From: a virus
Length of the DNA: 38,082 nt
Virus record (IMG/VR): IMGVR_UViG_3300027693_000002
Direction: 5' to 3' (one strand)
In this document: positions 13,225 through 27,900 of the stretch, piece by piece
Numbering within the stretch: position 1 is the stretch's first letter
Layout: each line of letters begins with the position of its first letter
Notes under the pieces: generated by a model
Database searches by the model: none
What the model saw: only the letters and a program-made list of their open reading frames with translations
Told to the model about the DNA's origin: nothing
Translations under genes and position numbers: made by a program

Positions 13225-13300
13225 AGGTAGCCTACACGTAAGTGACGAGCGCGCTCGAATCAATAGTAACGAGCGTGGTTCTTGCCTACGTGTAGTTGTA
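13225..13300. repeat. R1 inverted-repeat element, copy 1 (GCCTACACGTAAGT ... CGAATCAATAGTAACGA ... CTACGTGTAGT)
   Basis: 10-bp terminal inverted repeats, CTACACGTAG / CTACGTGTAG. Homologous copies lie at 18103-18178 and 27825-27900. Confidence 0.65.
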
Positions 13301-13365
13301 AGAACCGTAGGAACCCGTACCCTCATGGGGTAGTCCTCTACTTACATAGATAGAGTAGAAAGAAG

Positions 13366-13399
13366 TTGAGAGTTCGGGTGCTCGTGCGTAATAGAGGGC
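13366..13399 (+). promoter_or_regulatory. consensus leaderless promoter
   Basis: TTGAGA, a 14-nt spacer, GCGTAATA (13386-13393), gagggc, then ATG at 13400. Confidence 0.65.
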
Positions 13400-13954
13400 A
13401 TGAGCCAAACCGAACGAAATGGGGTCGTTCTTACGAGTGGACTTCTTGAGGGGTGGGAGGTTTCCAACCTCATCCCGAGTGAACAACTTCCAATGGAGGC
13501 GCTGAAGGTGTTCGAAGCCCCGATTTCCTCTGAGAACAAGATAGGGCTTCTCCTACGTGAAGAGATTCTTGGGGGAAGGGGGATGGTCTACGTGGCGGCT
13601 AGGGCTGCGCGCCGAGCCTGCACAGAGACAGGTTGGGACCATCCTGCTACCCTTCGAGCTCTCGACCTATGCGACCGTTACGCTGAGGGGGAAGAGATCT
13701 CAGCTAAAGCGCTAGGGGCAGCTGCTTTGGCTGTTTCTGAGGCTCCTTCAATGGCTGATGATGCCCCTTCAATGGATGCTTGGGAGGCTGCTCATGGGGC
13801 TGCTCGAGTTGCTTGGGCTGTTGCCGTTGATACTAGTGCCCGGACTAGGGCACTAACAGTTATTCGAACGGCTGTTAGTGCTGTCCCTAGTGAGAAGGAA
13901 GAGAGAAAAGCCCAACTCGCCGATTGTCGGGAGTGGCTTACGAGACGGGCCTAA
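13400..13954 (+). CDS. family A small protein (184 aa), paralogous to 17189..17803
   Basis: Promoter motif. The paralogue shares ...REEILGGRGMVYVAARAARRACTETGWDHPATLRALDLCDRY... Confidence 0.7.
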   Translation: MSQTERNGVVLTSGLLEGWEVSNLIPSEQLPMEALKVFEAPISSENKIGLLLREEILGGRGMVYVAARAARRACTETGWDHPATLRALDLCDRYAEGEEISAKALGAAALAVSEAPSMADDAPSMDAWEAAHGAARVAWAVAVDTSARTRALTVIRTAVSAVPSEKEERKAQLADCREWLTRRA

Positions 13955-13963
13955 GGAATTTGG

Positions 13964-13999
13964 TTGAGTTCTCTAGGCGCCCATGCGTAATAGGGTGGC
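13964..13999 (+). promoter_or_regulatory. consensus leaderless promoter
   Basis: TTGAGT (13964-13969), 15-nt spacer, GCGTAATA (13985-13992), then ATG at 14000. Confidence 0.65.
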
Positions 14000-14356
14000 A
14001 TGAGCAAAGTCGAACGAGAAGCTGTCATCCTGAACACGGTTCCTGGTTCGAAGTGGTATCAGTGCGTGAATAGCAAGTGGGTAGTGGGCTTGGTCGAGAG
14101 GGTAACCAAGACTACGATCTACCTCGAAGGGGGGACTCGCATCTCGAAGAGGAACTGTCGTGACCAAGATGGTTGGGCTTGGTATCCACCCACTCAGAAC
14201 ATCGTCAAGCAGTTCGAGGACTTTGAGGTCGCCAGGGTTGCTTACGAGGCGGCCGTAGAGAAGCTTCGAGAGGCAGCTCAGCGTGCTACGCCTGCTCAAC
14301 TTCTCAAGCTAGCCACTCAGCTAGAGAGCCTCATTGACCTGTCGGAGATTCACTGA
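14000..14356 (+). CDS. family B small protein (118 aa), with paralogues at 15380 and 16333
   Basis: Shared ...NTVPGSKWYQC...W...VTKTT...GG..ISK..CRD..G..W.PPTQ...; promoter motif upstream. Confidence 0.75.
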   Translation: MSKVEREAVILNTVPGSKWYQCVNSKWVVGLVERVTKTTIYLEGGTRISKRNCRDQDGWAWYPPTQNIVKQFEDFEVARVAYEAAVEKLREAAQRATPAQLLKLATQLESLIDLSEIH

Positions 14357-14401
14357 CCGCTCGTACTAGGAGGCCCGAGAAATTGACCTCGGGTATGGGA
14401 C

Positions 14402-15196
14402 ATGAAAAAGCCAATTGAATTGATCGTTCGGGGTTCTGTTGAGATTTCATCCTTCCAATTCAGCCTTGAGGCCACAGAAAATGTGGTGTGGCTGTCACGT
14501 ACGATGCGTGGCGTAGTCTCCGGGCTACTAGGCGTGTCGACGGGCGACATTGACGTCGTTGTCGTTGACGATTTCTTTTCTGGTCGAGGCCGATGGGGCC
14601 AGGTTTTGGAGATCTCAAACAAGACTGGTAAGTTCGACGGGACTCGGCGGATTCGGATGCTATTTCGCCTGCTCCCAGAAGAGCAAGCTCGCGATTTGAG
14701 GCCAATTAGCCTTGAGGTATCGGCTGATGAGACAGTTCCCTGTACGGTCATGGTGAGTGACCGGTTCGCCGGCAAGGAATTGCTATGGTCGCAGTCTTTT
14801 GTTCGCTACTCACATCGATTGTCTGACCCGGTACGGGCCGCAGATATCCTGACATGGCACTGGACGCGCTACTACCGTTTCCTACCGTGGTGTGATGTCG
14901 AGGATTTGGCACGCGACTTCGGGACTGCGGCGATTGGACTCACTCTGAGTGAGGCGAATCGCCTTGCTTCAAGGCAGCTCTACCAGAGGGCTAGAGAACA
15001 GGGTTGGAGGAAGTTGACTCTACGAGAGCAATCCCGGTGGCAGCTCCGTGGTCAGTGGCATCGCGACGAGGATTGCGTCACAGCTCGCGCCAAGCTTGGT
15101 GCACCCAACGGGGCGTCCGAAGCCTCGAATAGGGCCTCGCGTGCCAATGGTAAGCTTGACGACTACGAGTACTTGGCCGAGCAAATGGAGATCTAG
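14402..15196 (+). CDS. hypothetical protein (264 aa)
   Basis: Long ORF. The upstream signal is non-consensus (TTGACC ... TATGGGAC). Confidence 0.55.
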   Translation: MKKPIELIVRGSVEISSFQFSLEATENVVWLSRTMRGVVSGLLGVSTGDIDVVVVDDFFSGRGRWGQVLEISNKTGKFDGTRRIRMLFRLLPEEQARDLRPISLEVSADETVPCTVMVSDRFAGKELLWSQSFVRYSHRLSDPVRAADILTWHWTRYYRFLPWCDVEDLARDFGTAAIGLTLSEANRLASRQLYQRAREQGWRKLTLREQSRWQLRGQWHRDEDCVTARAKLGAPNGASEASNRASRANGKLDDYEYLAEQMEI

Positions 15197-15343
15197 AAGT
15201 TGACTCCAAACCCAGCTTAAGTTTCATAGAATGGGGAGCCAAGCACTGGGTTCCGGATGGGGTACTTGATGTTGGCCGACTTCCCAGTACCCCAGCCAAA
15301 GCTAGTTTCTTGGGGGTACCACAGGCGAACGCTATAGATTTTG

Positions 15344-15379
15344 GTTATGGGTTCGCAGGGGGCAAGCGTAATAGAGAAC
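15344..15379 (+). promoter_or_regulatory. consensus leaderless promoter (weak -35, GTTATG)
   Basis: GCGTAATA at 15366-15373, gagaac, then ATG at 15380. Confidence 0.55.
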
Positions 15380-15751
15380 ATGAACGCAGTTGATCGCGAA
15401 GAGGCCATTCGAAATACGGTACCTGGTTCAAAGTGGTATCAGTGCATCCATGGTAAGTGGCATGCGGTTGAGGTCAAGAAGGTAACCAAGACTACGGTTG
15501 TGCTTCTGGGGGGCACTTGCATCTCGAAGGCAACCTGTCGTGATCATGCTGGGCGGATCTGGTTTCCACCCACTCAGGACCTAGTTCTGGAGGTCATGGC
15601 GAAGAAGGACGCGATGACCTCTTACCTGGCAGCTCTAGAGAAGCTTCGAGCTATTGCTCAGTGGACTACAGCTGACCAGCTCCGGCAACTAGTCACCCAG
15701 ATGGAGAGCCTCATTGACCTCGTCACCGTCAATAGGGGCATAGGCCGGTGA
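15380..15751 (+). CDS. family B small protein (123 aa). The start is placed at the internal ATG defined by the promoter geometry and the paralogue N-termini.
   Basis: MNAVDREEAIRNTVPGSKWYQC... aligns with the family B N-termini. The track ORF begins 39 nt upstream, inside the promoter. Confidence 0.7.
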   Translation: MNAVDREEAIRNTVPGSKWYQCIHGKWHAVEVKKVTKTTVVLLGGTCISKATCRDHAGRIWFPPTQDLVLEVMAKKDAMTSYLAALEKLRAIAQWTTADQLRQLVTQMESLIDLVTVNRGIGR

Positions 15752-16201
15752 AGGTGGTAGGGGACTTTTGAGCTCCCTGCGTTTGAGTTCTGGGCCGGGG
15801 GCGTAGGTGATCATTCCGCGATACTGGGTAATGACAACGACGTCTTCGAGCTGGAATCCGGCGGACTTGACGTTACGTTGGATTCCGCCGTTGAGGACTC
15901 CGGTGAACCAGTTTGGTTTCTGCTTGAACTGGTCAGCGATCATCCTAGCGGAGAGACCATTTGGGGGGCCGGTCTTGATGAACTGGAGGACCTTCTTGGG
16001 GTTCGGCTTCAAGGCGGAGAGGAGTTTCATCCACGCCGTATCCCGGTCGAGGCGTGCCACTACCGGGATACGTGCTACGGGCTTTGGTTCATCCGCGACT
16101 GCCTGAAGGGTTGGGTTGAAGCCGTTCTCCTGAAGGAAGACGAGGGCCTTGATGAGGGCTTGATCGTCCTCGGTCTCGAATTGTACGAGAAATCTCGTCA
16201 T
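15689..16201 (-). CDS. hypothetical protein (170 aa) on the minus strand between plus-strand genes
   Basis: ATG start with AAGG about 9 nt upstream; natural-looking composition. It overlaps the 3' end of the 15380 gene by 63 nt. A competing plus-strand ORF 15878..16309 has a TTG start. Confidence 0.45.
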   Translation of the reverse strand: MTRFLVQFETEDDQALIKALVFLQENGFNPTLQAVADEPKPVARIPVVARLDRDTAWMKLLSALKPNPKKVLQFIKTGPPNGLSARMIADQFKQKPNWFTGVLNGGIQRNVKSAGFQLEDVVVITQYRGMITYAPGPELKRRELKSPLPPSPAYAPIDGDEVNEALHLGD

Positions 16202-16297
16202 AGGGGGCGCCTTAGTGGTACTGTAGTCAAGGCGTCATGCAAGAGGTTTTTGAGTAGGGGGACTTTTGAGTCAGAGGTTGAGTCTGCCTCAAAAGTC

Positions 16298-16332
16298 TCT
16301 CAGGACTAGGGCACAGGTGGTGTGTAGTAGGT
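16298..16332 (+). promoter_or_regulatory. degenerate promoter variant (…GTGTAGTAggtATG)
   Basis: A GTAGTA box ends 3 nt before the ATG at 16333. The -35 is unclear. Confidence 0.3.
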
Positions 16333-16701
16333 ATGAGCAACGCTATTCTTGAGGAAGCCGTTCGAAATACGGTCGCTGGGTCGAAGTGGTACCACCAAGT
16401 GGGTCGTAGTTGGCGTGAGGTCACTGTTGAGCGGGTAACCAAGACAATGGTCATTCTTACCAGTGGGGTACGAATCCCGAAGAAAACTCGTTGGGCTGAC
16501 GGGCACATATGGTTCCCACCCACCCCTGAGATGGTGGCGCTCTATGAGGCCCAGGATGCTCAAGAGATGGCTCATATCTTATACGTAGTAGCCTTAGAGA
16601 GGCTCCAGGCGTTGGCTCGGAAGTTTACGACCAACCAACTACGTCAGTTGGCCACTCAGATGGAGAGAGCCATCAAAGAGGTGGGAGACTCGCAGGGGTA
16701 A
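16333..16701 (+). CDS. family B small protein (122 aa)
   Basis: Paralogue of 14000 and 15380. Confidence 0.7.
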   Translation: MSNAILEEAVRNTVAGSKWYHQVGRSWREVTVERVTKTMVILTSGVRIPKKTRWADGHIWFPPTPEMVALYEAQDAQEMAHILYVVALERLQALARKFTTNQLRQLATQMERAIKEVGDSQG

Positions 16702-16856
16702 TCGAACCACTTCGGCCTGCTGTAAAAAGGTTGACTACCGGGGTGGGGGTGGAGTACTTTCCCGTTTGGCCTGAGCGTGGTTCTCCAATCATCTTCCACG
16801 TACGGGCTAGGCCGGGCCAGTTCTCCTTGTGTGCGGAGGATTGGCTCGGTCTTCTT

Positions 16857-17147
16857 TTATGGGGACCTCAAAGAGCCGGGTGGCTCGGGCAAATACATCC
16901 AATGGGTCACTAGCTCGGACTTGGAAAAGCGTACCCAATAGCCAGCATCCGATTCCACTAACCAATGAGACGTGCGATCGTACTTTGCAACGAGGAGTGC
17001 GTCCCAGCTATGCACTTCGCCGCTCGGGTATCGATCTACACGATGGTAGACGAGTAGTGGTTCATCGACTGGGGGATGGCATTCAGTGACCGGTACCCAG
17101 CCTTTCCTTTCGGGTTCAGGCTTCTCTTTCATGGGGCAAAAGTACAC
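16857..17147 (-). CDS. hypothetical protein (96 aa), minus strand
   Basis: ATG-start ORF with reasonable composition, sitting between plus-strand genes. Confidence 0.35.
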   Translation of the reverse strand: MYFCPMKEKPEPERKGWVPVTECHPPVDEPLLVYHRVDRYPSGEVHSWDALLVAKYDRTSHWLVESDAGYWVRFSKSELVTHWMYLPEPPGSLRSP

Positions 17148-17150
17148 CAG

Positions 17151-17188
17151 TTGACTTTTGGAGGTGATCCACGGATAATGAGGGTGGT
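17151..17188 (+). promoter_or_regulatory. promoter variant (TTGACT-N16-GGATAATG-N8-ATG)
   Basis: TTGACT at 17151-17156 and GGATAATG at 17173-17180. Confidence 0.45.
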
Positions 17189-17803
17189 ATGATCACCATT
17201 ACGAAAGAACTCCTTGAGAGTTGGGAGCCTTCCGACCTTATCCCAGACGAACTACTCCCGATGGGAGTGATGGAGTTGTTTGAAGCATCGATTCCGTCTA
17301 ATGCTAAAGTAGGGGTACTCCTACATGAAGAGATTCTTGGGCGGAGGGGAATGGTCTATGTAGTGGCTCGGGTTGCACGCCGAGGCTGTACGAAGACAGG
17401 TTGGTTCCATCCTGATACCCTTCGAGCTTTAGATCTGTGTGACCGATTTGTTAACGGGGAAGCGGTCTCAAAGGAAGAACTAGAAAGGGCTGCTAAGGCT
17501 GCTTGGGAGGTTCTGTCTGAGGATGCTCCTTCAATGCCTGCTTGGAGGACTGCTCATAGAGCTGCTCGGGTTGCTCAGGCTGCTGCTTGGGCTGCTTCTG
17601 TTATGACTACTTTGGCTAATGCTCAGGCTGCTGCTAGGGCTGCTACGACTTGGGCTGCTCGAGCAGCCACTTCTAGTGCTAAAAGTGCTAAAGAGAGAAG
17701 AGCTCAACTTACTGATTGCCAAGATTGGCTTCTAAGGAATTCCCCACAAGAAAGGGCTCCCGTACTTACTCGGTACCAGCGGATAATGAGGTCGTTGTGC
17801 TAA
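17189..17803 (+). CDS. family A small protein (204 aa) with an Ala-rich repetitive C-terminus
   Basis: Paralogue of 13400..13954. Confidence 0.7.
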   Translation: MITITKELLESWEPSDLIPDELLPMGVMELFEASIPSNAKVGVLLHEEILGRRGMVYVVARVARRGCTKTGWFHPDTLRALDLCDRFVNGEAVSKEELERAAKAAWEVLSEDAPSMPAWRTAHRAARVAQAAAWAASVMTTLANAQAAARAATTWAARAATSSAKSAKERRAQLTDCQDWLLRNSPQERAPVLTRYQRIMRSLC

Positions 17804-18102
17804 CCCTGGGGGAGGGTTAATGCGCCGTAGGGGGGAATGCCTTGGTCCAGTTCCGGATTTTGAGTTTGACGCTGACCTGTAAGATAGGTTGCCGGTAAGG
17901 TTACGAGCAGTGCATCAAGACTCGAGGGTGGTGGGGAGCCAGGGTCACTCTCGTTTATGACCAGAACAATGGGGGTGGCCTGGATAGTTAGTAGATTGCT
18001 TACAGGTAGGTAAGCTCTTGGCTCATTCCTATAGTTACCAGCGTATTGAGTAACTACATGTAAGCTAGTCCCTTGTTCGAGCTTATAAGCTCGAGCCTCT
18101 TG

Positions 18103-18178
18103 ATTGCCTACACGTAGTTTTAGAGCATGTTCGTAGCAATAGTAATGAGCCAATCATAAAACTACGTGTAGTTACATA
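18103..18178. repeat. R1 inverted-repeat element, copy 2
   Basis: GCCTACACGTAGT...CGTAGCAATAGTAATGAG...CTACGTGTAGT. Confidence 0.6.
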
Positions 18179-18404
18179 CTTTCTGGTTGAGAGTCCGCTT
18201 TTTGGTACATACTACGACTCATGTCATCAGTTGAGGGGAAAGTCGCACACTTTTTGAGAGCCGTAAGGCTCGGTTTGGTGAAAGACGTTCCACCGGATGC
18301 TGTCACATGTGAGTTCCATACAAAACTCACATGTGACAGCATCCGGGCTGCCACGTGTGGGGATAGGATTCTCGTAGAAAGGCAGGAACGCCGTCGAAGT
18401 TTGG

Positions 18405-18439
18405 TTGAGTTTGGCAAGACTGGCACGTAATACTAGGGC
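18405..18439 (+). promoter_or_regulatory. consensus leaderless promoter (TTGAGT-N14-CACGTAATA-N7-ATG)
   Basis: TTGAGT at 18405-18410, then ATG at 18440. Confidence 0.6.
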
Positions 18440-18670
18440 ATGACCCTCAAACATACGGCTGACATGCTTGCCTCGCTCAACGAACTGACTGCCAAGGTGA
18501 CGGCATTCAAGTCGTTTGCTGAGCTAGCAGCTCGCATGCTTGATGGGTACGTTCCCACTCTACGTGGAGACGATGCGGACTCAAAGGCCCTCGCCCTAGG
18601 GATCACCAGGGCGGGATTCAAGGCTTGGAACCCGGCAACGGGACGGAATTGGGTCGACGAAACCGGTTGA
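18440..18670 (+). CDS. family C small protein (76 aa)
   Basis: Its C-terminal 45 aa are nearly identical to 18936..19169. Its stop codon lies inside the next -35 box (ACCGGTTGAGG). Confidence 0.7.
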   Translation: MTLKHTADMLASLNELTAKVTAFKSFAELAARMLDGYVPTLRGDDADSKALALGITRAGFKAWNPATGRNWVDETG

Positions 18671-21235: not shown

Positions 21236-21475
21236 ATGAGCAAGAAGCTATCCCCAGCCCAAGCCCGGGTCCTTCAGGAAGTCATCAAGGTTACTGACGA
21301 TGGATATCGAGCTTGGAGTTGTTTCCCGGAATACAAGCCTGCTCTCAAGCTCCTCGAGCTTGAGTATGTGTCCAAAAGTGAGACCTTGGGTAGCTACCGA
21401 ATCACTTTGGTCCCAACCGAGCTAGGTAGATCAGTGGCTTCTAAGTTAGCCACATCTAAATCCTTGACCACTTGA
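21236..21475 (+). CDS. family D small protein (79 aa)
   Basis: Paralogue of 18701. Its last codons run into the 380-nt repeat. Confidence 0.7.
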   Translation: MSKKLSPAQARVLQEVIKVTDDGYRAWSCFPEYKPALKLLELEYVSKSETLGSYRITLVPTELGRSVASKLATSKSLTT

Positions 21476-21897
21476 CCGTCCTGGGGTATCCTCCGGGGGT
21501 CGTAAGTTCTTCTTGCCCAGCGCCCGAATAGGCTTAGCGCCTTCCTTCTGGGGTCAGCCAGGTAAGAAACCTGAGGCCGCCTACTTCGGTGGGTCGTAAC
21601 AGGTGAACCGATAGACACCAGATGTAGATCCTATAGATGTAGATTCTATCCGATGTAGATACCATGCCTCAGCTAGGCCGAACCGGCCCTGCTAGGTCAA
21701 AGTAAGCTGACGATCTCTGTTCCCTGGAATGAGCCAATCCTTCCTCTTAGTAGGTAAACACAGGCTACGAGGGACGCCCGAGTCCGAAGCTAAACCGGCC
21801 CGCAGGAACGAAGTAGGACAAATAGCTCTCATTCTCAGCCTGAATCCCTTTGCTTTAGAGCAATTGTCTGGAAACGGGCTAAAGGTGTATTTGGGGG
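21461..21897. repeat. R2 large intergenic repeat, copy A (~437 nt)
   Basis: It aligns with 27946-28325. The blocks are near-identical (about 130 nt identical: GATACCATGCCTCAGCTAGGCCGAACCGGCCC...GAGTCCGA). Copy A carries an extra insert with 3 tandem copies of a GATGTAGAT-containing ~15-mer (21620-21665). No ORF is conserved between the two copies. Confidence 0.75.
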
Positions 21898-21898
21898 G

Positions 21899-21933
21899 TT
21901 GAGTTCGGGGAAAGCTCGTGCGTAGTAGAGATC
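21899..21933 (+). promoter_or_regulatory. consensus leaderless promoter (GCGTAGTA variant)
   Basis: TTGAGT (21899-21904), 15-nt spacer, GCGTAGTA (21920-21927), then ATG at 21934. It is preceded by GGAAACGGGCTAAAGGTGTATTTGGGGGG. Confidence 0.6.
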
Positions 21934-22569
21934 ATGGCATTGACAATCGGTTACGAGGTTCATTGGGCGGGGGCTAACAGGGCGGATGAGTTGTCGGCGC
22001 TCCGCCATGGTGCAAAGAGGCATGCTACCTATGAAGCCGCTCTGGTAGAGTCCAGAGAGATCACCCCTCCTGAGCCCGATCTGGTGACCATAGTGGTGGA
22101 AGTTCGAACTAAGGTTCAAACCAACTGCTCACAACCCCTACGTGGAGACCCCATGCCGAAGCTCGAAGAACGAATCGAGAAGAAACGAATTCACCTCCGT
22201 ACGCTGGACGAACAGATCGGGGCCCTAATGGCCCTGCGTGCTGATGTAGGAGAGGAGCTTGCGGACCTCTTACTCGAGTCGCGGGTTGGCATTCCGGAGG
22301 TGGTCGAGGGCGGGCAGCCCTTCAGGAGCGACCAGAAGGTGATCTTGGAGAAGCGGGCCCCCGACGGCAAAGCTCGACTTCACCCAAACCAGCCTCCGGT
22401 GGGTGCCATGACCTTTGACGCCCTCTACGCTCTCTACTTCTGGGAGTCGACTCACGACAAGCTCGATGCACTCTTCTTTCGGGAGGGGGCGATCGAAGAG
22501 GAAACTTGGAAGGACCTCCGTGAGTGGCTCGACTCAAAAGGTTGGGTCGTACGGGTTGAGACCTGGTGA
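21934..22569 (+). CDS. hypothetical protein (211 aa)
   Basis: ORF at the promoter. Confidence 0.6.
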   Translation: MALTIGYEVHWAGANRADELSALRHGAKRHATYEAALVESREITPPEPDLVTIVVEVRTKVQTNCSQPLRGDPMPKLEERIEKKRIHLRTLDEQIGALMALRADVGEELADLLLESRVGIPEVVEGGQPFRSDQKVILEKRAPDGKARLHPNQPPVGAMTFDALYALYFWESTHDKLDALFFREGAIEEETWKDLREWLDSKGWVVRVETW

Positions 22570-22575
22570 ATCTGG

Positions 22576-22610
22576 TTGAGTTCGGGGTAGGCTCATGCGT
22601 AATAGGGAGC
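22576..22610 (+). promoter_or_regulatory. consensus leaderless promoter
   Basis: TTGAGT (22576-22581), GCGTAATA (22597-22604), gggagc, then ATG at 22611. Confidence 0.6.
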
Positions 22611-22817
22611 ATGGGCGACTTGACCACAATCTGGATGGTTCGAACGATGGGTTTCGACTTCATTGGGCTGGCTCCAAAGACGGATGAACATCCGGCAATG
22701 CAGTGCCGATTCGTCGAACAGACGAACCAGATCATCTTTGAGGAGTTTCAGGATGGCAACTGGAGTGTGATCCCCCCATGTCTTCGTGGGGATTGGCAGC
22801 TCTTCAAGGTCCGGTAG
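22611..22817 (+). CDS. hypothetical 68-aa protein. The start is reassigned to the promoter-defined ATG.
   Basis: The track ORF 22566..22817 starts inside the promoter, but the canonical geometry points to 22611. Confidence 0.5.
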   Translation: MGDLTTIWMVRTMGFDFIGLAPKTDEHPAMQCRFVEQTNQIIFEEFQDGNWSVIPPCLRGDWQLFKVR

Positions 22818-22831
22818 AACGCGAATGTTAT

Positions 22832-22859
22832 GGGGCGGGCTTAAGGCGTCAGGAGGGAT
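22832..22859 (+). promoter_or_regulatory. family G leader module, copy 1 (GGGGCGGGCTTAAGGCGTCAGGAGGGAT-ATG; SD-containing)
   Basis: A 28-nt block repeated 3 times (also at 23195-23222 and 23540-23567), each ending 0-1 nt before an ATG. It contains AGGAGGG. Confidence 0.6.
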
Positions 22860-23135
22860 ATGGCAAGACTACAATACACGTACAAGTACCCACGGACTTC
22901 CTGGACGGACGTGCGCGAGACCCTCAGCGCTCGAAAGCGACGGTACTGGTACTCGCTCGAGGCCGCGGTTCGAGACATCGAGCGCATGATGCGCCCGGGC
23001 TGCACGAAAGAACCGTTCGTGCAGTTGATCGAGGTTCCTCCAGACGGTCCTATGCGCGTCCTAGCCGAGCGTACCCAAGACGAGTGGCTAGGTACTCTTG
23101 AAGCGGCTGGGTTCATCGCTCGCAGAGTCTCATAA
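22860..23135 (+). CDS. family G small protein (91 aa)
   Basis: MARLQYTYKY...; it shares its leader and its first residues with 23223. Confidence 0.5.
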   Translation: MARLQYTYKYPRTSWTDVRETLSARKRRYWYSLEAAVRDIERMMRPGCTKEPFVQLIEVPPDGPMRVLAERTQDEWLGTLEAAGFIARRVS

Positions 23136-23194
23136 GGTGAACCAACCTACATCGTTCCGCCTCGCTAGATAGTTCCGCCCGAACCCATTCAGTT

Positions 23195-23222
23195 GGGGCG
23201 GGCTTGAGGCGTCAGGAGGGAT
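23195..23222 (+). promoter_or_regulatory. family G leader module, copy 2
   Basis: GGGGCGGGCTTGAGGCGTCAGGAGGGAT, preceded by the hairpin CCGCCC...GGGCGG. Confidence 0.55.
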
Positions 23223-23480
23223 ATGACAAGACTACAATACACGAAGTTATGCGCATGGTTTGCGTTTTGGTATGTCGCATTGACAGCGTTACGGGCACTG
23301 CGCAACAGTGACACACTGATGTGTAAGTGGGCCTCGGTTGCGGCCAGGTGGCATCCGTGCGCCAAATCCGAGCCGGAGCTGCCAGATTATCCAGGTCGAG
23401 GGCCAGGAGGAGAGTCGCTGGTACGAGCGATCCATCTCGACGTTTTGCACGGCACGGACCGTGCATTTTCAAGTATGTGA
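23223..23480 (+). CDS. family G small protein (85 aa); diverged after the N-terminus
   Basis: MTRLQYT... Confidence 0.4.
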   Translation: MTRLQYTKLCAWFAFWYVALTALRALRNSDTLMCKWASVAARWHPCAKSEPELPDYPGRGPGGESLVRAIHLDVLHGTDRAFSSM

Positions 23481-23514
23481 GGAGGAAGTGATGAATATCA
23501 CATGCATACTATAC

Positions 23515-23567
23515 GCCTTAAGCCCGAACCCATTCAGTTGGGGCGGGCTTAAGGCATCAGGAGGGAT
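23515..23567 (+). promoter_or_regulatory. family G leader module, copy 3, with a 12-bp stem hairpin (GCCTTAAGCCCG / CGGGCTTAAGGC)
   Basis: The 3' arm of the hairpin is part of the conserved leader block just upstream of the SD. Confidence 0.55.
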
Positions 23568-23951
23568 ATGCCTACATTCAATTTAGAGGCACTGGAAAGT
23601 CTACCAGCTGGTACTATCCCAGATGGCTGGTACCCTATTAGGCGGGTTGATCTCGACGGCGTGCAACTGGTCGAGACCGATACAGGAGCTTACCGGCTTA
23701 CGGCCGGGGAACACGGGAAGAACCCCCATTTTGGGCGTGTGCAGAATATCCCCGGGCGTGGGCCCGCGTGGATGCGTTTGATTTTCCGCGAATGTGCCTA
23801 TGGCGCGGAGTCGGATTCTGCCCAGCAAGCGATTGCTGAGGCCATAGAGGCCGAGAACGCTGAGAGTCAAGTCCGACCCCCTTCTTCGATTGAGCGCGCA
23901 AACGAACTTCAGGGGGTAAGCGCCAAAGCGGGCCCCTCCAAAACCGGTTGA
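23568..23951 (+). CDS. hypothetical protein (127 aa)
   Basis: ORF that follows a module-type leader. It ends ...AAAACCGGTTGA, inside the next -35 box. Confidence 0.5.
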   Translation: MPTFNLEALESLPAGTIPDGWYPIRRVDLDGVQLVETDTGAYRLTAGEHGKNPHFGRVQNIPGRGPAWMRLIFRECAYGAESDSAQQAIAEAIEAENAESQVRPPSSIERANELQGVSAKAGPSKTG

Positions 23952-23981
23952 GCTTCGTGTTGCCCGCGCGTAATACTGGGC
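23948..23981 (+). promoter_or_regulatory. consensus leaderless promoter
   Basis: TTGAGC (23948-23953), 14-nt spacer, GCGTAATA (23968-23975), then ATG at 23982. Confidence 0.6.
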
Positions 23982-24245
23982 ATGGCACATAGAACTCACC
24001 GCAAGTTGGCAAAGCGACTGATCAGCCCTTGTTGGATGATCCGGACCGGGATTGCTTGCGAGCAGATCTCCCCCGTGTATCCGACCCTTGAGAAGGGATT
24101 CGAGGAGGTGGTCTCCGCCGTTTGCGGGTTTGACCCACTGTCAAGTCCGGACACCATCGAGCTCGTCCGCCACAGTCGGCGGAATCCAAAGCTTCTCGTC
24201 CGGTACTACTGTACGGATGAGGGGAAGATCGTCCAGGTTCAGTAG
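23982..24245 (+). CDS. hypothetical protein (87 aa)
   Basis: ORF at the promoter. Confidence 0.55.
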   Translation: MAHRTHRKLAKRLISPCWMIRTGIACEQISPVYPTLEKGFEEVVSAVCGFDPLSSPDTIELVRHSRRNPKLLVRYYCTDEGKIVQVQ

Positions 24246-24258
24246 GCGCGCTTTCTGG

Positions 24259-24293
24259 TTAATTTCGTCACGGGTTTCCGCGTAATAATGGGC
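24259..24293 (+). promoter_or_regulatory. consensus leaderless promoter (TTAATT -35)
   Basis: GCGTAATA at 24280-24287. The canonical ATG is at 24294; an extra ATG at 24288 directly abuts the box. Confidence 0.55.
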
Positions 24294-24677
24294 ATGTCGA
24301 ACAACGTTCATCTCCTGGATTTTATTCACACTGGGACTCAACAGCAGTTGGTTGCATTCGCCTGCAAGGTAGCTAAGCGAGCCAGCCCCGGGCCTGCTGG
24401 ACTTCATGCGATCGAGATTGCGGAGCGATGGCTCCGGGGTGAAGCTATTTCGAAGGAAGAACTCATCGTCGCGGGAGATGCGGCCTCTGATGCAGACGAT
24501 GACCTGGCAGGCTACGCTACCATCGCGGCGGCCTTTCCAGGAGATGCCGTCGAAGCGGCTTACATAACGGCGATCCACGCTTTGGATGATCTTGACGACC
24601 ACGCTCAGGAGGCTGAGGTGGCTCAACAAGTCCAGGACTTTCTTGATATCTTGGGTGGAAACCCAGCAAAGGAGTGA
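24288..24677 (+). CDS. hypothetical acidic protein (129 aa from 24288, or 127 aa from 24294)
   Basis: First gene of an operon whose downstream genes are SD-led. Confidence 0.6.
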   Translation: MGMSNNVHLLDFIHTGTQQQLVAFACKVAKRASPGPAGLHAIEIAERWLRGEAISKEELIVAGDAASDADDDLAGYATIAAAFPGDAVEAAYITAIHALDDLDDHAQEAEVAQQVQDFLDILGGNPAKE

Positions 24678-25177
24678 ATATGGGAGAGTTTTCGGAACAA
24701 TTGATGTCTGGGGGGCCGGAGCTCTTAGCGCTACCCGCAGATCCGGTTATAGGCGAGGCGTTGACCTCGATGCAGGCCTACCCGGAGGAATGGTGGTGTG
24801 AGCTTCAAGAGCTTCAACCAAAGCTTCGTATGGCGATTCTGGAGACGGCAGTGGCTGGAGATCGGGCTGCCCAGGATGCTGATTGGCTCCTGAGTGATTA
24901 TGATACCTTCAACTATGCGTTGAATACCCGAACGTTTGACGAGGGCTTCTTGCGGTTTGTCATGGGATTGCTCGAGTGTGGGCCGGGTTTACACTTCAGT
25001 GGACCACGGTTCCGGTTAGCTTTCCGACTTGGAGTACTGAACGCGGCTTCCTTCCAGGATAAGCATCGGAAGGACATGGTTATTTGCCGCTCACAGGATG
25101 CTGCCCCTTGGGAAGCTCGACCAATGCAGCTCTTACGGAGGCTGGCCGCCGTAAAGGTAAAGCCCGAACCCAAGTAG
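24674..25177 (+). CDS. hypothetical protein (167 aa), SD-led, with a 4-nt overlap
   Basis: AAGGAG lies 9 nt upstream of the start. Confidence 0.55.
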   Translation: MNMGEFSEQLMSGGPELLALPADPVIGEALTSMQAYPEEWWCELQELQPKLRMAILETAVAGDRAAQDADWLLSDYDTFNYALNTRTFDEGFLRFVMGLLECGPGLHFSGPRFRLAFRLGVLNAASFQDKHRKDMVICRSQDAAPWEARPMQLLRRLAAVKVKPEPK

Positions 25178-25198
25178 AACAGTGGGTGAGGGCGGCCC

Positions 25199-25606
25199 AT
25201 GAAACTCGAGGAAGTGACCGCTGGAAGGCGATTGAAACTGAGCAATCTCGCTCAGTTAGAAGGGGTATACCAAATGCTAGGTAGAAGGGGCATTCCATCT
25301 ATTTCGTTGAAACAATTGGTAGATGATGCGGTTTTTGCACTCTCACGGTTCCAACACGAGAAAGGGACTGTCAGCGAGCTACGTTCCCTGGCAAGTCCGA
25401 ATCACATCATGGACTTGATCTTCTTTGCCAACGCGAAGTCGGTCACTTTTCGTGATCGTGGCGTGGAGTGCGCGGTCGAAGCGGACAAGCGAGACTGTCA
25501 GCTCGCTGCTCTCGCGTTGGTCAAGATAGCCCAGCGAGCTGAACACATTGTGGAGGTCCTTCGAGGAAGGAGAATACCAGATGTGGTACGACATTGTGAA
25601 CGGTAA
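25199..25606 (+). CDS. hypothetical protein (135 aa)
   Basis: ORF in the operon. Confidence 0.5.
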   Translation: MKLEEVTAGRRLKLSNLAQLEGVYQMLGRRGIPSISLKQLVDDAVFALSRFQHEKGTVSELRSLASPNHIMDLIFFANAKSVTFRDRGVECAVEADKRDCQLAALALVKIAQRAEHIVEVLRGRRIPDVVRHCER

Positions 25607-25946
25607 CGGGGACTTTCTCGGACGTGCTAATGGGGATACGCCGGAGGGGGCCGTCGAAGGAGTCCAAAAGTACTGGCCATGTCCCGAAGACCGTTGGCTT
25701 CGAGACCCAAGTAACAAGGAGTCCCAGGACCTTCTCATTCCTGGGGCCAAGAAGGAACAGGAACTGGTCCGAAAGGATGTTTGGGCCTTCTGCAAACCCC
25801 ACATTAAGGGAATGCTGGGTGTGCAGACCAAACCGTTGAATAAGCCCCCGCAATTCTTAGATGGGGAGTACTACTACGAGGTTCTTGGTAAGACCTACTG
25901 CGTCAAGATCGTGCTTGATGCAGTCTTCATCACCCGCATCAAATAG
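25548..25946 (+). CDS. family F protein (132 aa), with its C-terminal 57 aa shared with 25999..26541
   Basis: AAGGAG SD. The C-terminal block KDVWAFC.PHIKGM....KPLNKPPQFLDGEY.YEVLGKTYCVKIVLDAVFITR.K is duplicated. Confidence 0.6.
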   Translation: MWRSFEEGEYQMWYDIVNGNGDFLGRANGDTPEGAVEGVQKYWPCPEDRWLRDPSNKESQDLLIPGAKKEQELVRKDVWAFCKPHIKGMLGVQTKPLNKPPQFLDGEYYYEVLGKTYCVKIVLDAVFITRIK

Positions 25947-25963
25947 AACTGACTCAAAGAGAG

Positions 25964-25998
25964 TTGAGTTCTTGGACCCTCGCGCGTAATAGAGGGGT
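25964..25998 (+). promoter_or_regulatory. consensus leaderless promoter
   Basis: TTGAGT (25964-25969), 14-nt spacer, GCGTAATA (25984-25991), then ATG at 25999. Confidence 0.65.
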
Positions 25999-26541
25999 AT
26001 GCAAGACCAAGACGATATCAAGGAAGAGCTCAAGCACATTGTCTGGGGTCTCGCCATCGAAGGGGCCACGGCTCATCTCCACGAGACCAGCGTTACCTTC
26101 AAGGCCGAGGGGGTGGATTGCTCCATCTATACGGAGGTGCTTGCGATCCCGAACCAAGTGACCAAGGACGCCGAGGGGAATGAATACGTTCCCTTGGAGG
26201 TCAGAGTCACCCTAGTTGAGCCAATTTTTGCTTTAGACACGCCCAAGGAAATCATCGCCCGACTCCAATTCGGGCTCAAGGTTGCCCAGCTCGCGCAGAG
26301 CATTGTTGATCACTTCGCAGGCCGAGACCTTCGGTGCCTCCTCTGTAGCGCAGGTGAGAGGGCCGAGAAGGATGTTTGGGCCTTCTGCACACCCCACATT
26401 AAGGGAATGCGGGTAGACAAGACCAAGCCGTTGAATAAGCCCCCGCAATTCTTAGATGGGGAGTACCACTACGAGGTTCTTGGTAAGACCTACTGCGTCA
26501 AGATCGTGCTTGATGCAGTCTTCATCACGCGCACCAAATAG
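25999..26541 (+). CDS. family F protein (180 aa)
   Basis: Its C-terminal domain is duplicated from the previous gene, and the promoter is duplicated with it (a 40-nt identical upstream block). Confidence 0.65.
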   Translation: MQDQDDIKEELKHIVWGLAIEGATAHLHETSVTFKAEGVDCSIYTEVLAIPNQVTKDAEGNEYVPLEVRVTLVEPIFALDTPKEIIARLQFGLKVAQLAQSIVDHFAGRDLRCLLCSAGERAEKDVWAFCTPHIKGMRVDKTKPLNKPPQFLDGEYHYEVLGKTYCVKIVLDAVFITRTK

Positions 26542-26557
26542 AACGGACCCAAAAAAG

Positions 26558-26591
26558 TTGAGTTCTTGGACCCTCGCGCGTAATAGAGGGC
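26558..26591 (+). promoter_or_regulatory. consensus leaderless promoter
   Basis: Identical to the 25964 promoter over about 35 nt (TTGAGTTCTTGGACCCTCGCGCGTAATAGAGGGC). Confidence 0.65.
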
Positions 26592-26795
26592 ATGAAGACG
26601 GAACTCATGGTTGGCTCAGAACTCGTAAAACGCCGCCGTAGCCTCTCGTACCCTTCTGGAACTGTCAAGGTTCCTGGAACCTTGGTCACGATTGTCGGAT
26701 CGACTCCCAAGTTTTGGGAGTTGAGCGATGACACTCTCGTGTCAAAAACCACTCTCGAAGCAAAAGGTTCGCTATTCACTTACAGTGTGAGCTGA
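26592..26795 (+). CDS. hypothetical protein (67 aa)
   Basis: ORF at the promoter. Confidence 0.5.
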   Translation: MKTELMVGSELVKRRRSLSYPSGTVKVPGTLVTIVGSTPKFWELSDDTLVSKTTLEAKGSLFTYSVS

Positions 26796-26800
26796 TAGCC

Positions 26801-27106
26801 ATGAACCAACGAGATATGCCACCAGGGACCAAGGTGGCTTACACAGGTAAGTTCCTACGTTCGGCGGGCCTCTACACGGGTTCAGCGGGCCTTGACCAGT
26901 TCGTAGTCCAAGAGTGCCACTGCCCTCACTGCAAGGGCAAGACTCGGGTAGCCGTCAACCGGCTCGCTTCTTGGACCGATCCCCATGAGCCTGGGTACGA
27001 CCCCGAGTACGCTCGTGATCTCAAGGCTGAGGTGGGGAACACCTGGCTGCACATAAGTCCGACGGCCCTCTACGTGGTAGGGGAGTTGGACCCAAGGAAC
27101 GTCTGA
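26801..27106 (+). CDS. hypothetical protein with a CHCPHC motif (101 aa)
   Basis: ORF. Confidence 0.45.
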   Translation: MNQRDMPPGTKVAYTGKFLRSAGLYTGSAGLDQFVVQECHCPHCKGKTRVAVNRLASWTDPHEPGYDPEYARDLKAEVGNTWLHISPTALYVVGELDPRNV

Positions 27107-27149
27107 CTTCGTTGGACTGTCTCGCCCCGAGACGGGGTATTAGGTCCCC

Positions 27150-27422
27150 ATGGACCTAAAAAGGTACGAGAGCAAGGTGACGGCCCTTCTAAACCTACTT
27201 AGGGAGCACGAAGTCCTGTCCTCTCAGCTACCAATTGGGTTCTCAGAAGCTTGCTTCGTTGCTGAGGAGTTCGGCCTGGCCTACGCCAGAAAAGACCTCA
27301 CCTTAACGTCAAGGGACAAGGCTATCTGGGTATGGAGGATCACCGACGCTGGTCGCCGTTGGCTCAAAGAGCGAGAGCATCCTGAAGTCCCTCCGACAGA
27401 AGTTCTCCCCACGAAGGATTGA
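27150..27422 (+). CDS. family E small protein (90 aa)
   Basis: Paralogue of 28412..28666 (MDL.KYESK..ALL..LR.H..LS..LP.G..EAC..AEE.GLAYARKD..L.S..KAIW.WRIT..G..WLK.RE.PEVPPT). A GTATTAGG box precedes the ATG. Confidence 0.6.
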   Translation: MDLKRYESKVTALLNLLREHEVLSSQLPIGFSEACFVAEEFGLAYARKDLTLTSRDKAIWVWRITDAGRRWLKEREHPEVPPTEVLPTKD

Positions 27423-27452
27423 GTTTCTGAGCCCTTATGCGTAATACTGGGC
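27419..27452 (+). promoter_or_regulatory. consensus leaderless promoter
   Basis: TTGAGT (27419-27424) overlaps the stop of the previous gene; GCGTAATA (27439-27446); then ATG at 27453. Confidence 0.6.
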
Positions 27453-27671
27453 ATGCCGAATGAAGACCATCAGGTGGTGCTTGGAATCCAAGTAAAGAAG
27501 AACGCAAAGGGGATGCGAGTGGGAGCCTCGAAAGAGGTTTTCCACATGACGATTGGGCTGAGCCAGAAGGCCATGATCCTTCCGGGTCGTCACTTGGTGG
27601 TGCTCGGGACCCGACGTTACCGGGTAGAGGTCGACCAGAACAAGAACCTCAAGATTACTCGTACGGTTTGA
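27453..27671 (+). CDS. hypothetical basic protein (72 aa)
   Basis: A frameshifted remnant of its 5' end, with its own promoter, recurs at 31651. Confidence 0.6.
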   Translation: MPNEDHQVVLGIQVKKNAKGMRVGASKEVFHMTIGLSQKAMILPGRHLVVLGTRRYRVEVDQNKNLKITRTV

Positions 27672-27724
27672 CCTAAGTTCAAGAGATAGGGGGAGTGATC
27701 CACAGACTTGGGTCACTCCCTCGT

Positions 27725-27900
27725 TATCCATGTAAGCAAATACGTGGTTCGTTACTATTGATACGAACAGTGCACTCGCTTACATGTAGTTTTTGCTCAC
27801 GTTCGTTACTATTGATACGAAAGCTAAGGTTGCCTACACGTAAGTATCAAGCACGTTCGAATCTATAGTAATGAACACGATTTTGGTCTACGTGTAGTAT
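27725..27900. repeat. R1 inverted-repeat element, copy 3, plus two extra direct copies of the 19-21-mer GTTCGTTACTATTGATACGAA
   Basis: 19-21-mers at 27748-27768 and 27802-27822 in one orientation, and CGAATCTATAGTAATGAAC at 27858-27875 inverted. Termini are GCCTACACGTAAGT / CTACGTGTAGT. CATGTAAGC...GCTTACATG flanks the first 19-21-mer. Confidence 0.65.

Follow-up and report, generated by a model that had tools for sequence, protein, structure and literature searches.

Phased arrays of a self-palindromic decamer in a phage genome and its relatives as candidate sites for a dimeric protein

In the F-plasmid sopC, every 43-bp unit contains a 7-bp inverted repeat, and phage N15 has dispersed sopC-like sites. 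In the CRP-CytR-CRP complex of E. coli deoP2, two CRP sites approximately 53 bp apart flank a CytR operator. The BIME/REP elements of enterobacteria, with hundreds of copies on the host chromosome, bind IHF and gyrase, fold in RNA and depend on RAYT transposases. Intergenic RNA hairpins of phages include the RNase III sites of T7 and the T4-type promoter-stem-loop cassettes (PeSL), and ribbon-helix-helix proteins (Arc, Mnt, omega, ParG) have operators built of short repeats, arrayed either in tandem or as inverted copies. Stoperators, to which an HTH repressor binds, are asymmetric and 13 bp long; a genome has 24-34 of them, in a single orientation relative to transcription (PMC3029335).

We analysed a window of 38,082 nt of DNA from an uncultivated phage, the whole stretch being called W in the following. 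A preliminary description had reported three intergenic loci with single elements of ~75 nt, bounded by 10-bp terminal inverted repeats and carrying an asymmetric 19-mer core. All of the sequence features described are present where they had been placed, and the inverted pairs are real; the loci, however, are arrays phased at 54 bp with shared sites, and the terminal repeats are copies of a self-palindromic decamer, CTACRYGTAG (CTAC-RY-GTAG), which is the recurrent site of all three loci. Precisely, the start-to-start distance between decamers is exactly 54 bp in 5 site pairs of W (an interval of 44 bp between the two sites), and no pairs were found in W at any other period from 40 to 69. The sequence CTACACGTA occurs six times in W, as three inverted pairs (13232/13287, 18108/18163 and 27834/27889), against 0.15 in shuffles. 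The unit is 64 bp long and adjoining units have one decamer in common, so that each locus is an array of 2-3 units with up to 4 sites. The three arrays, each of 172 bp and in a gene-free spot, are listed here with their surroundings.

13178..13349, no strand: array 1, 4 sites, inside a 780-nt gene-free divergent region
13178-13187 (degenerate, ACCTATGTAG), 13232-13241 (CTACACGTAA), 13286-13295 (CTACGTGTAG), 13340-13349 (degenerate, ACTTACATAG): sites of array 1
13253..13274, + strand: array 1, central unit, inner hairpin (GCTCG, AATCAATAGTAA, CGAGC), the core described previously
13365..13402, + strand: promoter-like motif, leaderless (GTTGAG, N16, GCGTAATA, N6, ATG)
18000..18171, no strand: array 2, 4 sites and 3 units, the whole array an imperfect palindrome
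18000-18009 (TTACAGGTAG), 18054-18063 (CTACATGTAA), 18108-18117 (CTACACGTAG), 18162-18171 (CTACGTGTAG): sites of array 2
18021..18042, - strand: array 2, left unit, core in degenerate form (GCTGG, TAACTATAGGAA, TGAGC on the - strand)
18075..18096, no strand: centre of the middle unit of array 2, with the core replaced by a perfect small palindrome (GTTCGAGCT-TATA-AGCTCGAGC)
18129..18150, + strand: array 2, right unit, inner hairpin (GTTCG, TAGCAATAGTAA, TGAGC)
18185..18223, + strand: promoter-like motif variant (GGTTGAGAG...GGTACATAC...ATG), score 11.8, only the -35 block good
27726..27897, no strand: array 3, 4 sites, core orientations -, -, +
27726-27735 (degenerate, ATCCATGTAA), 27780-27789 (TTACATGTAG), 27834-27843 (CTACACGTAA), 27888-27897 (CTACGTGTAG): sites of array 3
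27747..27768, - strand: array 3, left unit, inner hairpin (GTTCG, TATCAATAGTAA, CGAAC, read on the - strand)
27801..27822, - strand: array 3, middle unit, inner hairpin (TTTCG, TATCAATAGTAA, CGAAC, read on the - strand)
27855..27876, + strand: array 3, right unit, inner hairpin (GTTCG, AATCTATAGTAA, TGAAC)
27912..27977, + strand: TTGACC-type promoter-like motifs, with a TTGACC-N17-TATCCT match at 27949-27977

We tentatively prefer to read the arrays as phased double-stranded DNA sites for a dimeric protein, which may form a nucleoprotein complex where transcription units meet, a short way upstream of promoters. A dimeric sequence-specific protein would occupy up to four sites per array, with CTACR as the half-site and CTACRYGTAG as the full site, the site centres being a fixed 54 bp apart in this lineage, or 56 bp in a sister one. 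The quasi-symmetric centre of the interval could be the site of a second protein, or a bendable TATA step that would let adjacent bound dimers touch. The assembled complex, of ~170 bp at the borders of transcription units, could regulate from upstream, or could separate neighbouring units as an insulator or a protein roadblock. Like deoP2, the arrays have palindromic sites suited to dimers about 5 helical turns apart, a quasi-symmetric element midway and a promoter downstream; unlike deoP2, they have up to four sites at a clade-specific 54 or 56 bp, and sequences and proteins are unrelated. The resemblance may concern a possible working mode, not membership. The earlier idea of operator-like, protein-bound sites is in general the one favoured here, with the decamer and not the 19-mer as the putative site.

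The same plan is kept in five related metagenomic phages. A single ungapped register accommodates all 17 units, and the 13 well-preserved ones, in which both sites can be recognised, have TAC and GTA without exception in their 26 sites. Considering W, L048, L160, L109 and L126 together, the strong site pairs with a period between 40 and 69 number 14, and every one of them has period 54. This exact phasing argues for DNA sites, as does the self-palindromic nature of each arm, which a hairpin does not need. Sites, spacing and a central CTATAG are kept without indels while the linkers diverge. In L048, the orthologue of array 2 (5407-5578) has no indels inside the 172-bp array, again in favour of DNA sites, and three indels (13, 9 and 14 nt) lie outside it, at most 40 nt away. 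In the sister lineage L162, the period is 56 (46-nt intervals) in every unit of both arrays, although these units have little sequence in common with one another and three of them are orthologues of 54-bp units of L109. This concerted shift from 54 to 56 across all L162 units implies selection on spacing and supports the preferred reading. Both 54 and 56 bp correspond to a non-integer number of helical turns.

The same comparisons bear on the possibility that these are selfish or neutral palindromic repeats without a function of their own, either MITE-like, as had been proposed, or amplified by template switching at the self-complementary decamer. The terminal inverted repeats, the copies in both orientations and a TnpB gene in the relative L049 would suit such an origin, and template switching at a palindrome would yield shared sites and alternating orientation. 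Moreover, array 3 is in part a diverged duplicate of array 1 (27816-27898 against 13214-13296, 81% identity over 83 nt, family D9), it sits among other segmental duplications (families D3, D8, D9 and D15), and it has no counterpart in L048 or L126. As to the earlier proviso about a motif that does not recur and stems from mere segmental duplication, the motif recurs in related genomes and locus 3 partly duplicates locus 1. We consider this explanation improbable, since the three W loci lack a target-site duplication and their neighbouring units overlap by a full 10-bp site, two grounds on which the MITE proposal fails; no transposase gene was found in the window; the arrays are syntenic and retained where neighbouring proteins share only ~50% identity; sites, spacing and CTATAG are conserved beside diverging linkers; and the spacing shift of L162 implies selection. 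Like BIME/REP, these are extragenic arrays of palindromic units with alternating orientation and conserved linkers; unlike them, they are few phage arrays without such a transposase, and REP units have no shared arms.

The supposedly asymmetric 19-mer is the stem and loop of a small inner hairpin (GTTCG, 12 nt, YGARC), whose palindromic centre C(T/A)ATAG coincides with the dyad of each unit, the interval centre being quasi-symmetric (GTTCG-N3-C(T/A)ATAG-N3-CGAAC). With at most 3 mismatches, the core TTCGWANCNATAGTAAYGA is found six times in W versus 0.13 expected, on the + strand at 13254, 18130 and 27856 and on the - strand at 27749 and 27803, the two opposite copies correctly noted before at locus 3, plus a degenerate one at 18023. 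These counts bear on strict stoperators, that is, asymmetric 19-mers bound by a repressor and halting elongating RNA polymerase in a lysogen. The sites are, as in Cluster A mycobacteriophages (L5, Bxb1), short, conserved, dispersed and intergenic, and a roadblock would suit their position between transcription units; unlike stoperators, single and in one orientation, those of W are 10-bp palindromes in four-site arrays phased at 54 bp. The cores are only 5-6, confined to three clusters in 38 kb, in both orientations within one array and on the dyad of a larger symmetric unit, and the search of the window gave no HTH, repressor or integrase gene. Copy number and orientation both contradict strict stoperators, the analogy breaks down for each of the features tested, and we regard the proposal as barely credible.

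The hairpins raise a further explanation, namely that the 64-nt units, or the whole 172-nt array as a single long hairpin, function in transcripts. They could be processing sites of the RNase III type, terminators lacking a classical U-tract or stabilisers of 3′ ends, or could be recognised through the conserved 12-nt loop by an RNA-binding protein. Folded as RNA, as had been suggested, single units and whole arrays fold well (U5 -28 kcal/mol, z -6.5; U2 -31, z -3.4; whole array 3, z -6.7), and the right unit of array 2 has an outer stem of 15 bp. The inner-stem pair 23:42 is UA in 5, UG in 5 and CG in 3 cases with no mismatches, the core strand has 12 G.T cells versus 1 A.C cell, and the inner stem, covarying through G.U intermediates on that strand, is 91.8% paired versus 89.3% in shuffles (6 of 500 shuffles attain this value). 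The extensions of the stem likewise covary: their sequences vary and complementarity is kept. Runs of T4-5 come after the internal sites W 18108, W 27780, L048 5515 and L126 58, in arrays downstream of co-directional genes, and one window ORF weakly matches a phage ProQ C-terminal-like domain (E 0.006). The folds, the RNA-like covariation and the terminator-like T4-5 runs weigh against the DNA-site reading and suit an RNA role. As in T7 RNase III sites and PeSL, there are related structured elements of ~60 nt between genes, beside promoters and at mosaic junctions; the arms of those hairpins, unlike those of W, are not self-palindromic, phased or shared.

We nevertheless consider an RNA role unlikely. 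It needs neither self-palindromic arms nor a constant interval of 44 nt (46 nt in one lineage), and arms common to adjacent units make neighbouring hairpins mutually exclusive. The strand of L160 whose inner stem pairs best has a mismatched outer pair. The inner stem is lost with site and spacing kept in L160a, L126a, L126b, W_U1 and the L162 unit 9276, the last of which forms no hairpin when folded as DNA (z -1.3); this persistence, which some L162 units show, argues for DNA sites. Rfam gave no match to the arrays, even at E up to 5, and the terminator scan gave no more hits than in shuffled sequence. Finally, array 1 and array 2 of L162 lie between divergent genes, with no upstream promoter, so that no transcript is expected to cross them and there is nothing to terminate; bidirectional terminators, proposed previously, would fit the T4-5 runs of the co-directional regions but not these two arrays.

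Position relative to promoters is consistent with the DNA-site reading. A promoter-like motif lies within about 25-80 nt downstream in 8 of 8 arrays (those whose downstream flank was covered by the retrieved sequences), and this, with the two arrays between divergent genes, is a further argument for it. In W, the motif begins 25 nt past the start of the last site at array 1 and 24 nt at array 2 (its GTTGAG) and at array 3 (the first TTGACC, in motifs leading into a conserved non-coding region). Start to start, the proximal site and the promoter are 24-26 nt apart in some arrays and 32-35 nt in others, and the centre of this site is ~55-57 bp upstream of the promoter start in 3 of the 6 arrays measured and ~62-66 bp in the other 3. 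From their position, we infer that a complex at the arrays acts on transcription; the variable distance argues against a strictly phased activator and, together with a period that is not of whole helical turns, counts against the DNA-site reading.

Array 1 is 100% identical in L048, with an adjacent gene at ~75% at the DNA level, and an equivalent array is carried by L160. Over the 500-nt non-coding block that surrounds array 1, conservation between W and L048 is 98-99%. Array 1 adjoins six TGTATATCAC iterons and an AT-rich stretch, at a strand switch and the minimum of the cumulative GC skew. Such a context could indicate genome maintenance at the DNA level, either replication origins (with an initiator bound to palindromes that surround an AT-rich centre, or with single-strand initiation signals of the hairpin type on opposite strands) or dispersed centromere-like partition sites. 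The nested palindromes with their AT-rich centre and the opposite-strand cores, which point outward from the array centre, would fit, and the fixed-period tandem units with one palindromic site each, dispersed along a phage genome, recall sopC and the N15 centromere sites. Differently from these, the arrays have only 3 units, shared sites, alternating orientation and a second element per interval. We judge a maintenance role quite unlikely, as three arrays in 15 kb would be unusual for origins, iterons are absent from arrays 2 and 3, the search of the window gave no gene for an initiator, primase, ParA or ParB, and the skew switch coincides with the switch of transcription direction and is thus not independent evidence.

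Among the 150 ORFs of the window, we found no HTH, ribbon-helix-helix or recombinase matches, hence neither the nearby repressor or HTH gene suggested before nor any protein linked to the CTACRYGTAG arrays, which argues against the preferred DNA-site reading; binding of a protein to the decamers remains putative. In the syntenic relative L176, six direct tandem repeats of 25 bp are made with this decamer, and directly downstream of them lies a small gene whose NikA-like (ribbon-helix-helix) match is weak (Pfam E 0.015). This is an operator or iteron arrangement, similar to ribbon-helix-helix operators, from which the window arrays differ in having no linked protein; its decamers have no 54-bp hairpin partner, which favours DNA sites. 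In W, a syntenic gene faces the six TGTATATCAC repeats.

The preliminary description reported three intergenic loci with ~75-nt inverted-repeat elements around a 19-mer core, and the sequence reads so at each of them. The arm CTACACGTA occurs six times in the window, as three inverted pairs (0.15 expected), and the core, with up to three mismatches, also occurs six times in 38 kb, always inside the three clusters (0.13 expected), with three copies on the + strand, two on the - strand at locus 3 and one degenerate copy on the - strand at 18023. A scan of the arms allowing one mismatch showed that each arm is itself a 10-bp palindrome, CTAC-RY-GTAG (hereafter, decamer or site), in which TAC and GTA are invariant, and that extra copies of it adjoin the three elements. 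The sites are arranged as follows (window coordinates):

Array 1, 13178-13349: sites at 13232 and 13286, degenerate sites at 13178 and 13340; successive spacing exactly 54 bp
Array 2, 18000-18171: sites at 18000, 18054, 18108 and 18162; successive spacing exactly 54 bp
Array 3, 27726-27897: sites at 27780, 27834 and 27888, degenerate site at 27726; successive spacing exactly 54 bp

Exact decamers were four in the window against 0.18 in shuffles, and all five strong site pairs with a period between 40 and 69 were at 54. We considered as a unit the 64 bp between and including two decamers; since successive decamers are 54 bp apart, adjacent units have one site in common. The loci are consequently arrays, 172 bp long, with up to four sites and three units that overlap by 10 bp.

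Metagenomic relatives (contigs with L-numbers) were found through homologues of a neighbouring 184-aa protein and through exact-pattern scans. The scan of metagenomes returned 81 stretches, among which L069, L109 and L126 are true relatives; the scan of genomes gave unrelated matches only, and the scans of IMG/VR gave chance or unrelated matches except for L176, picked up by its direct repeats. L051-L053 and L069 do not differ from the window (100% identity) and therefore carry no microdiversity information, and a covariance model of the unit found no more copies in the distant relatives L049, L135 and L158-L161. A Bacteroidales MAG, CAMQYL01 (L142, L145-L147, L151, L152, L154, L156), and about 13 human-gut contigs carry an unrelated repeat family, TAGGGTCG-CTACATGTAG-CGACCG...(32 nt variable)...CGGTCG-CTACATGTAG-CGACCCTA, in many copies per genome, which has the decamer and the 54-bp spacing in common with the arrays by coincidence.

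The period is 54 in L048 (~87% DNA identity; array 1 unchanged and an orthologue of array 2), L160 (array-1 equivalent), L126 (array-2 equivalent) and L109 (a three-unit array). L162 has two arrays in which every unit shows a 46-nt interval, corresponding to period 56, and one of them is orthologous to the L109 array, with 2 nt more in each of three units, the first of which has its indel at the centre. Site pairs at exactly 54 bp were 14 (five genomes) and those at exactly 56 bp were three (L162), and no site pairs were present at the other periods from 40 to 69 in these six genomes. Between the window and L048, identity is 98-99% over the 500 nt around array 1 (next gene ~75%), and array 2 shows no indels within its 172 bp against three indels within 40 nt outside. 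The shared middle site of array 2 is tuned in the window to its right neighbour (15-bp stem) and in L048 to its left neighbour (14-bp stem). The units of L162 have little sequence in common, several are without inner stem and the one at 9276 gives no hairpin fold. L176 is syntenic, because a non-coding block of it aligns to window 13048-13115, L160 and L162. Here CTACATGTAG-TTTTTCGTGGTCCCC is repeated six times in tandem, in direct orientation and with period 25, and the repeats lie immediately upstream of a small divergent gene, for whose product Pfam gives a weak match of NikA-like (ribbon-helix-helix) type (E 0.015). L176 also has a degenerate array whose promoter-proximal site is 26 nt before GTTGAG.

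One ungapped register fits 17/17 units of the window and four relatives, namely site (10), linker (11), stem (5), loop (12), stem (5), linker (11) and site (10). C(T/A)ATAG sits on the unit dyad, and the 19-mer core corresponds to the stem and loop of the inner hairpin, centred on the same dyad. Precisely, the core orientation is -, -, + in array 3 and -, symmetric, + in array 2; with left-unit cores on the - strand and right-unit cores on the + strand, the array itself is loosely palindromic. When the left arm was compared with the reverse complement of the right one, 23-25 of 44 positions agreed in array 2, array 3 and the array of L048, and 11/44 in array 1 and 10/44 in L160; the whole array, folded as RNA, gives one long hairpin. 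We consider unusual both this three-level nested palindrome (site, unit and array) and a spacing that is constant in a lineage and shifts in concert between lineages.

This re-reading corrects a tempting mis-annotation of the loci as MITEs, terminators or stoperators, the classes proposed in the preliminary description. Stoperators are 13-bp asymmetric binding sites of Cluster A mycobacteriophages, present as some 24-34 single copies dispersed in the genome, with uniform orientation relative to transcription, and bound by the phage's HTH immunity repressor (PMC3029335). Here, instead, the recurrent element is the 10-bp palindrome CTACRYGTAG, the cores are six in the 38 kb covered, out of a genome of roughly 99 kb, and gathered in three clusters, and both core orientations occur within one array. 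The search for a nearby repressor or HTH gene gave no such family among 150 ORFs. Asymmetry, copy number and single orientation all fail, and stoperators in the strict sense are a hardly tenable reading.

We also regard as very improbable that the arrays are selfish repeats. CTACACGTA and TACGTGTAG do flank each central unit as terminal inverted repeats, with a likeness to transposon ends that is superficial because each arm alone is already palindromic. MITEs are not supported by the flanks (..GC before the first site and TT.. after the last), which show no target-site duplication, or by the 10-bp overlap of adjacent units; the window yielded no transposase, and only an unlinked TnpB was seen, in L049. 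Arrays 1 and 2 keep a syntenic position in L048, L160 and L126, and array 3, surrounded by duplications, has no counterpart in L048 or L126.

As for bidirectional terminators, the arrays fit in part only. Arrays 2 and 3 and the first array of L162 do follow a gene, but array 1, likewise in L048 and L160, and the second array of L162 lie between divergent genes. Runs of four or five T are present after internal sites in four co-directional arrays, not after the central units first described, and the terminator scan flagged only the small palindrome 18075-18096, with terminator-like hits not commoner than in shuffles. What was found at the loci is a short conserved palindromic site at constant distance, as in a fixed-period array.

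In favour of RNA hairpins, single units fold well. In the given structure 91.8% of cells are paired vs 89.3% in shuffles, a value reached by 6/500 shuffles in a control that, by the tool's own warning, is inflated by the relatedness of the units; moreover, the inner pair 23:42 is found as UA, UG and CG, mismatch-free, the core strand has 12 G.T cells vs one A.C cell, and the stem extensions covary. A hairpin arm, however, need not be self-complementary, yet every arm is palindromic, its TAC and GTA never changing, and neighbouring hairpins, having arms in common, exclude each other. The interval keeps its length where the sequence has diverged heavily, and it shifts in concert from one lineage to another; sites and spacing persist where inner stems are gone. 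In L160, the strand with the best-paired inner stem carries a C.A mismatch in the outer pair, two arrays lie between divergent genes, and in L176 the decamer occurs as direct repeats, without a 54-bp partner. We gave the evidence for DNA sites more weight than that for hairpins, in view of the modest covariation and of the common descent of the units, and we consider an RNA hairpin role unlikely.

At gathering score Rfam 15 gave no match, and with the threshold relaxed to E 5 the arrays still had none; the search for tRNA and tmRNA in the window was negative too. A tRNA-like or Y-RNA-like RNA, an idea prompted by the roughly tRNA-sized units, GTTCGAATC in one core, a Thg1-like gene and Ro60 in a relative, was discarded on the ARAGORN (none) and Rfam results; also, the T-loop-like motif of one core is not preserved in other copies. 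As standard phage promoters the cores scored <8 bits on the PWM, inside the shuffle range, and sigma-70-type promoters were found inside the units neither by scan nor on reading. An IHF site in the core was discarded on reading, only the WATCAA half of the consensus being present.

From ~13.4 to 31.7 kb, GTTGAG-N16-GCGTAATA-N6-ATG precedes nearly every + strand gene. The extended -10 block of this motif recalls sigma-28-type promoters, and most small genes, with few exceptions, carry a copy of their own. Using a PWM built from 18 instances, about 21 copies of the leaderless promoter-like motif were found in window 3440-31653, all on the + strand, for example:

13365-13402, + strand: promoter-like motif
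25963-26001, + strand: promoter-like motif
26557-26594, + strand: promoter-like motif

The analysis thereby exposes the transcription layout of the phage, with ~21 leaderless promoters. The motif is probably read by the 215-aa product of 37177-37824 (- strand), a candidate FliA-like sigma factor of the phage itself. It matches sigma factors of FliA/WhiG and ECF type; the NCBIfam match, TIGR02479 (E 4e-16), falls short of the family cut-off, and the Pfam Sigma70_r4 match is weak. A promoter-like motif follows each array of the window, at 13365 for array 1 and, as a variant, at 18185 for array 2; array 3 is followed by TTGACC-type motifs at 27912-27977.

Reasoning from sequence, we tentatively read the loci as phased arrays of double-stranded DNA sites for a dimeric protein. 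From the observed architecture we infer that a protein binds, what it may be and that transcription is affected, in the following way. A dimer would occupy each decamer, adjacent dimers would be in contact across the 44-bp (or 46-bp) interval, and the flexible quasi-symmetric centre of the interval might be bent, or occupied by a second factor. The resulting four-site complex, upstream of a promoter and at a transcription-unit border, might either have a regulatory role from that position or form a roadblock or insulator. The centre of the promoter-proximal site is at about -54 to -66 from the start codon or start site, depending on the array, and this varying distance argues against a rigidly phased activator and slightly for an architectural or insulating role.

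In plan the loci come closest to protein-site arrays of fixed period, such as sopC-type centromeres and iteron or operator arrays, and to CRP-CytR-CRP, from which they differ in their shared sites, alternating unit orientation, conserved central element and lineage-specific spacing; a role in origin or partition function is, in our opinion, quite unlikely. Improbable too, and more speculative, is an undescribed "molecular ruler", in which a phage protein oligomer would read four decamers, at 54 or 56 bp depending on the lineage, across a nested palindrome, and a duplex/cruciform switch of this palindrome, driven by negative supercoiling from adjacent, partly divergent promoters, would couple borders or local replication initiation to topology.

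If protein-bound, the arrays would be a control element of a large uncultivated phage clade, with genomes of ~95-120 kb, sampled in wetlands and freshwater sediment, in which nearly all genes are of unknown function. The concerted shift predicts a different binding protein in the 54-bp and 56-bp lineages, and it predicts that 2-bp spacing mutants or cross-lineage swaps would break function.

Searches of Pfam, PHROGs and NCBIfam with ~150 window ORFs gave no DNA-binding family besides the one sigma factor. Six exact copies of TGTATATCAC, in both orientations, are present at 12641-12835 and nowhere else in the window. They face the small gene 12254-12622 (- strand, 122 aa), syntenic with the small gene of L176, and lie with array 1 in the same 780-nt gene-free divergent region. 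On reading, the N-terminus of the 122-aa product resembles a ribbon-helix-helix, an assignment not confirmed by Pfam, NCBIfam, PDB sequence search, AF2 (pLDDT 59) or Foldseek. Both the TGTATATCAC repeats and the small gene are kept in L162; in L176 the same place has a different small gene and CTACATGTAG repeats. The neighbourhood also includes paralogous helical proteins (~160-210 aa) with conserved ends and a hypervariable Ala/Trp-rich middle, in up to five tandem copies in a relative:

Window 13400-13954: helical paralogue after array 1
Window 17189-17803: helical paralogue before array 2
L135 8996-11238: helical paralogues

The 184/204-aa paralogues adjoining arrays 1 and 2 were rejected as binders, as nothing linked them to DNA binding.

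By megablast the window matched none of 50,697 phage records; it is phage-like but new. It encodes a 654-aa protein with a domain common to virion and tail-fibre proteins, and almost all its other ORFs were assigned to no family. Other features of the window and its relatives are the following:

5203-5949, - strand: gene of a Thg1-like protein (tRNA-His guanylyltransferase family)
L135 3619-5205: gene of a Ro60/TROVE protein with vWA domain, on a contig also encoding dCTP deaminase, peptide deformylase and NUDIX
L162 6092-6709 and 13235-13873: a protein with a Cas_VVA1548 domain hit and an Apyc1-like (anti-Pycsar) protein
18293-18346: perfect 23-bp inverted repeat with 8-nt spacer, within the small Cys-rich gene 18221-18430, which follows array 2 in the window and L126 and is absent in L048
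21463-21900 and 27948-28330: two copies of a non-coding region of ~250-400 nt, 90-99% identical over long stretches, preceded by TTGACC-N17-TATCCT and kept in L048 10374-10627 and L126 1638-2038
21621-21660: three copies of GATGTAGAT, 15-16 nt period, at the start of the conserved core of that region; one degenerate copy at 28078
28908-29040: standard promoter motif, then ACG in place of ATG
28944-28969 and 29015-29040: hairpin with 26-nt arms, 92% complementary, coinciding with the predicted start; a 22-nt tandem repeat in its loop (28967-29008)
31127-31548 and 4136-4357: inverted copies of one non-coding sequence

The Thg1-like and Ro60/TROVE genes suggest RNA repair as a theme; the window showed no Y-RNA-like RNA. 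The duplicated region at 21463-21900 and 27948-28330 is a candidate structured RNA. In the consensus structure predicted by RNAalifold, 17/85 pairs are retained via two-sided changes in at least one sequence; Rfam gave no match. The stretch 28908-29040 is a possible small RNA gene. The inverted sequence at 31127-31548 and 4136-4357 is 84-88% identical to L049 1273-1406, 8151-8581 and 17207-17333, in a contig otherwise diverged, and one of these copies abuts the 3' end of a TnpB (IS605 OrfB) gene. A weak RAGATH-18 match (E 0.3) lies at 31169-31240 on the - strand. The inverted repeat may represent the end of a transposon or what is left of a TnpB guide RNA.
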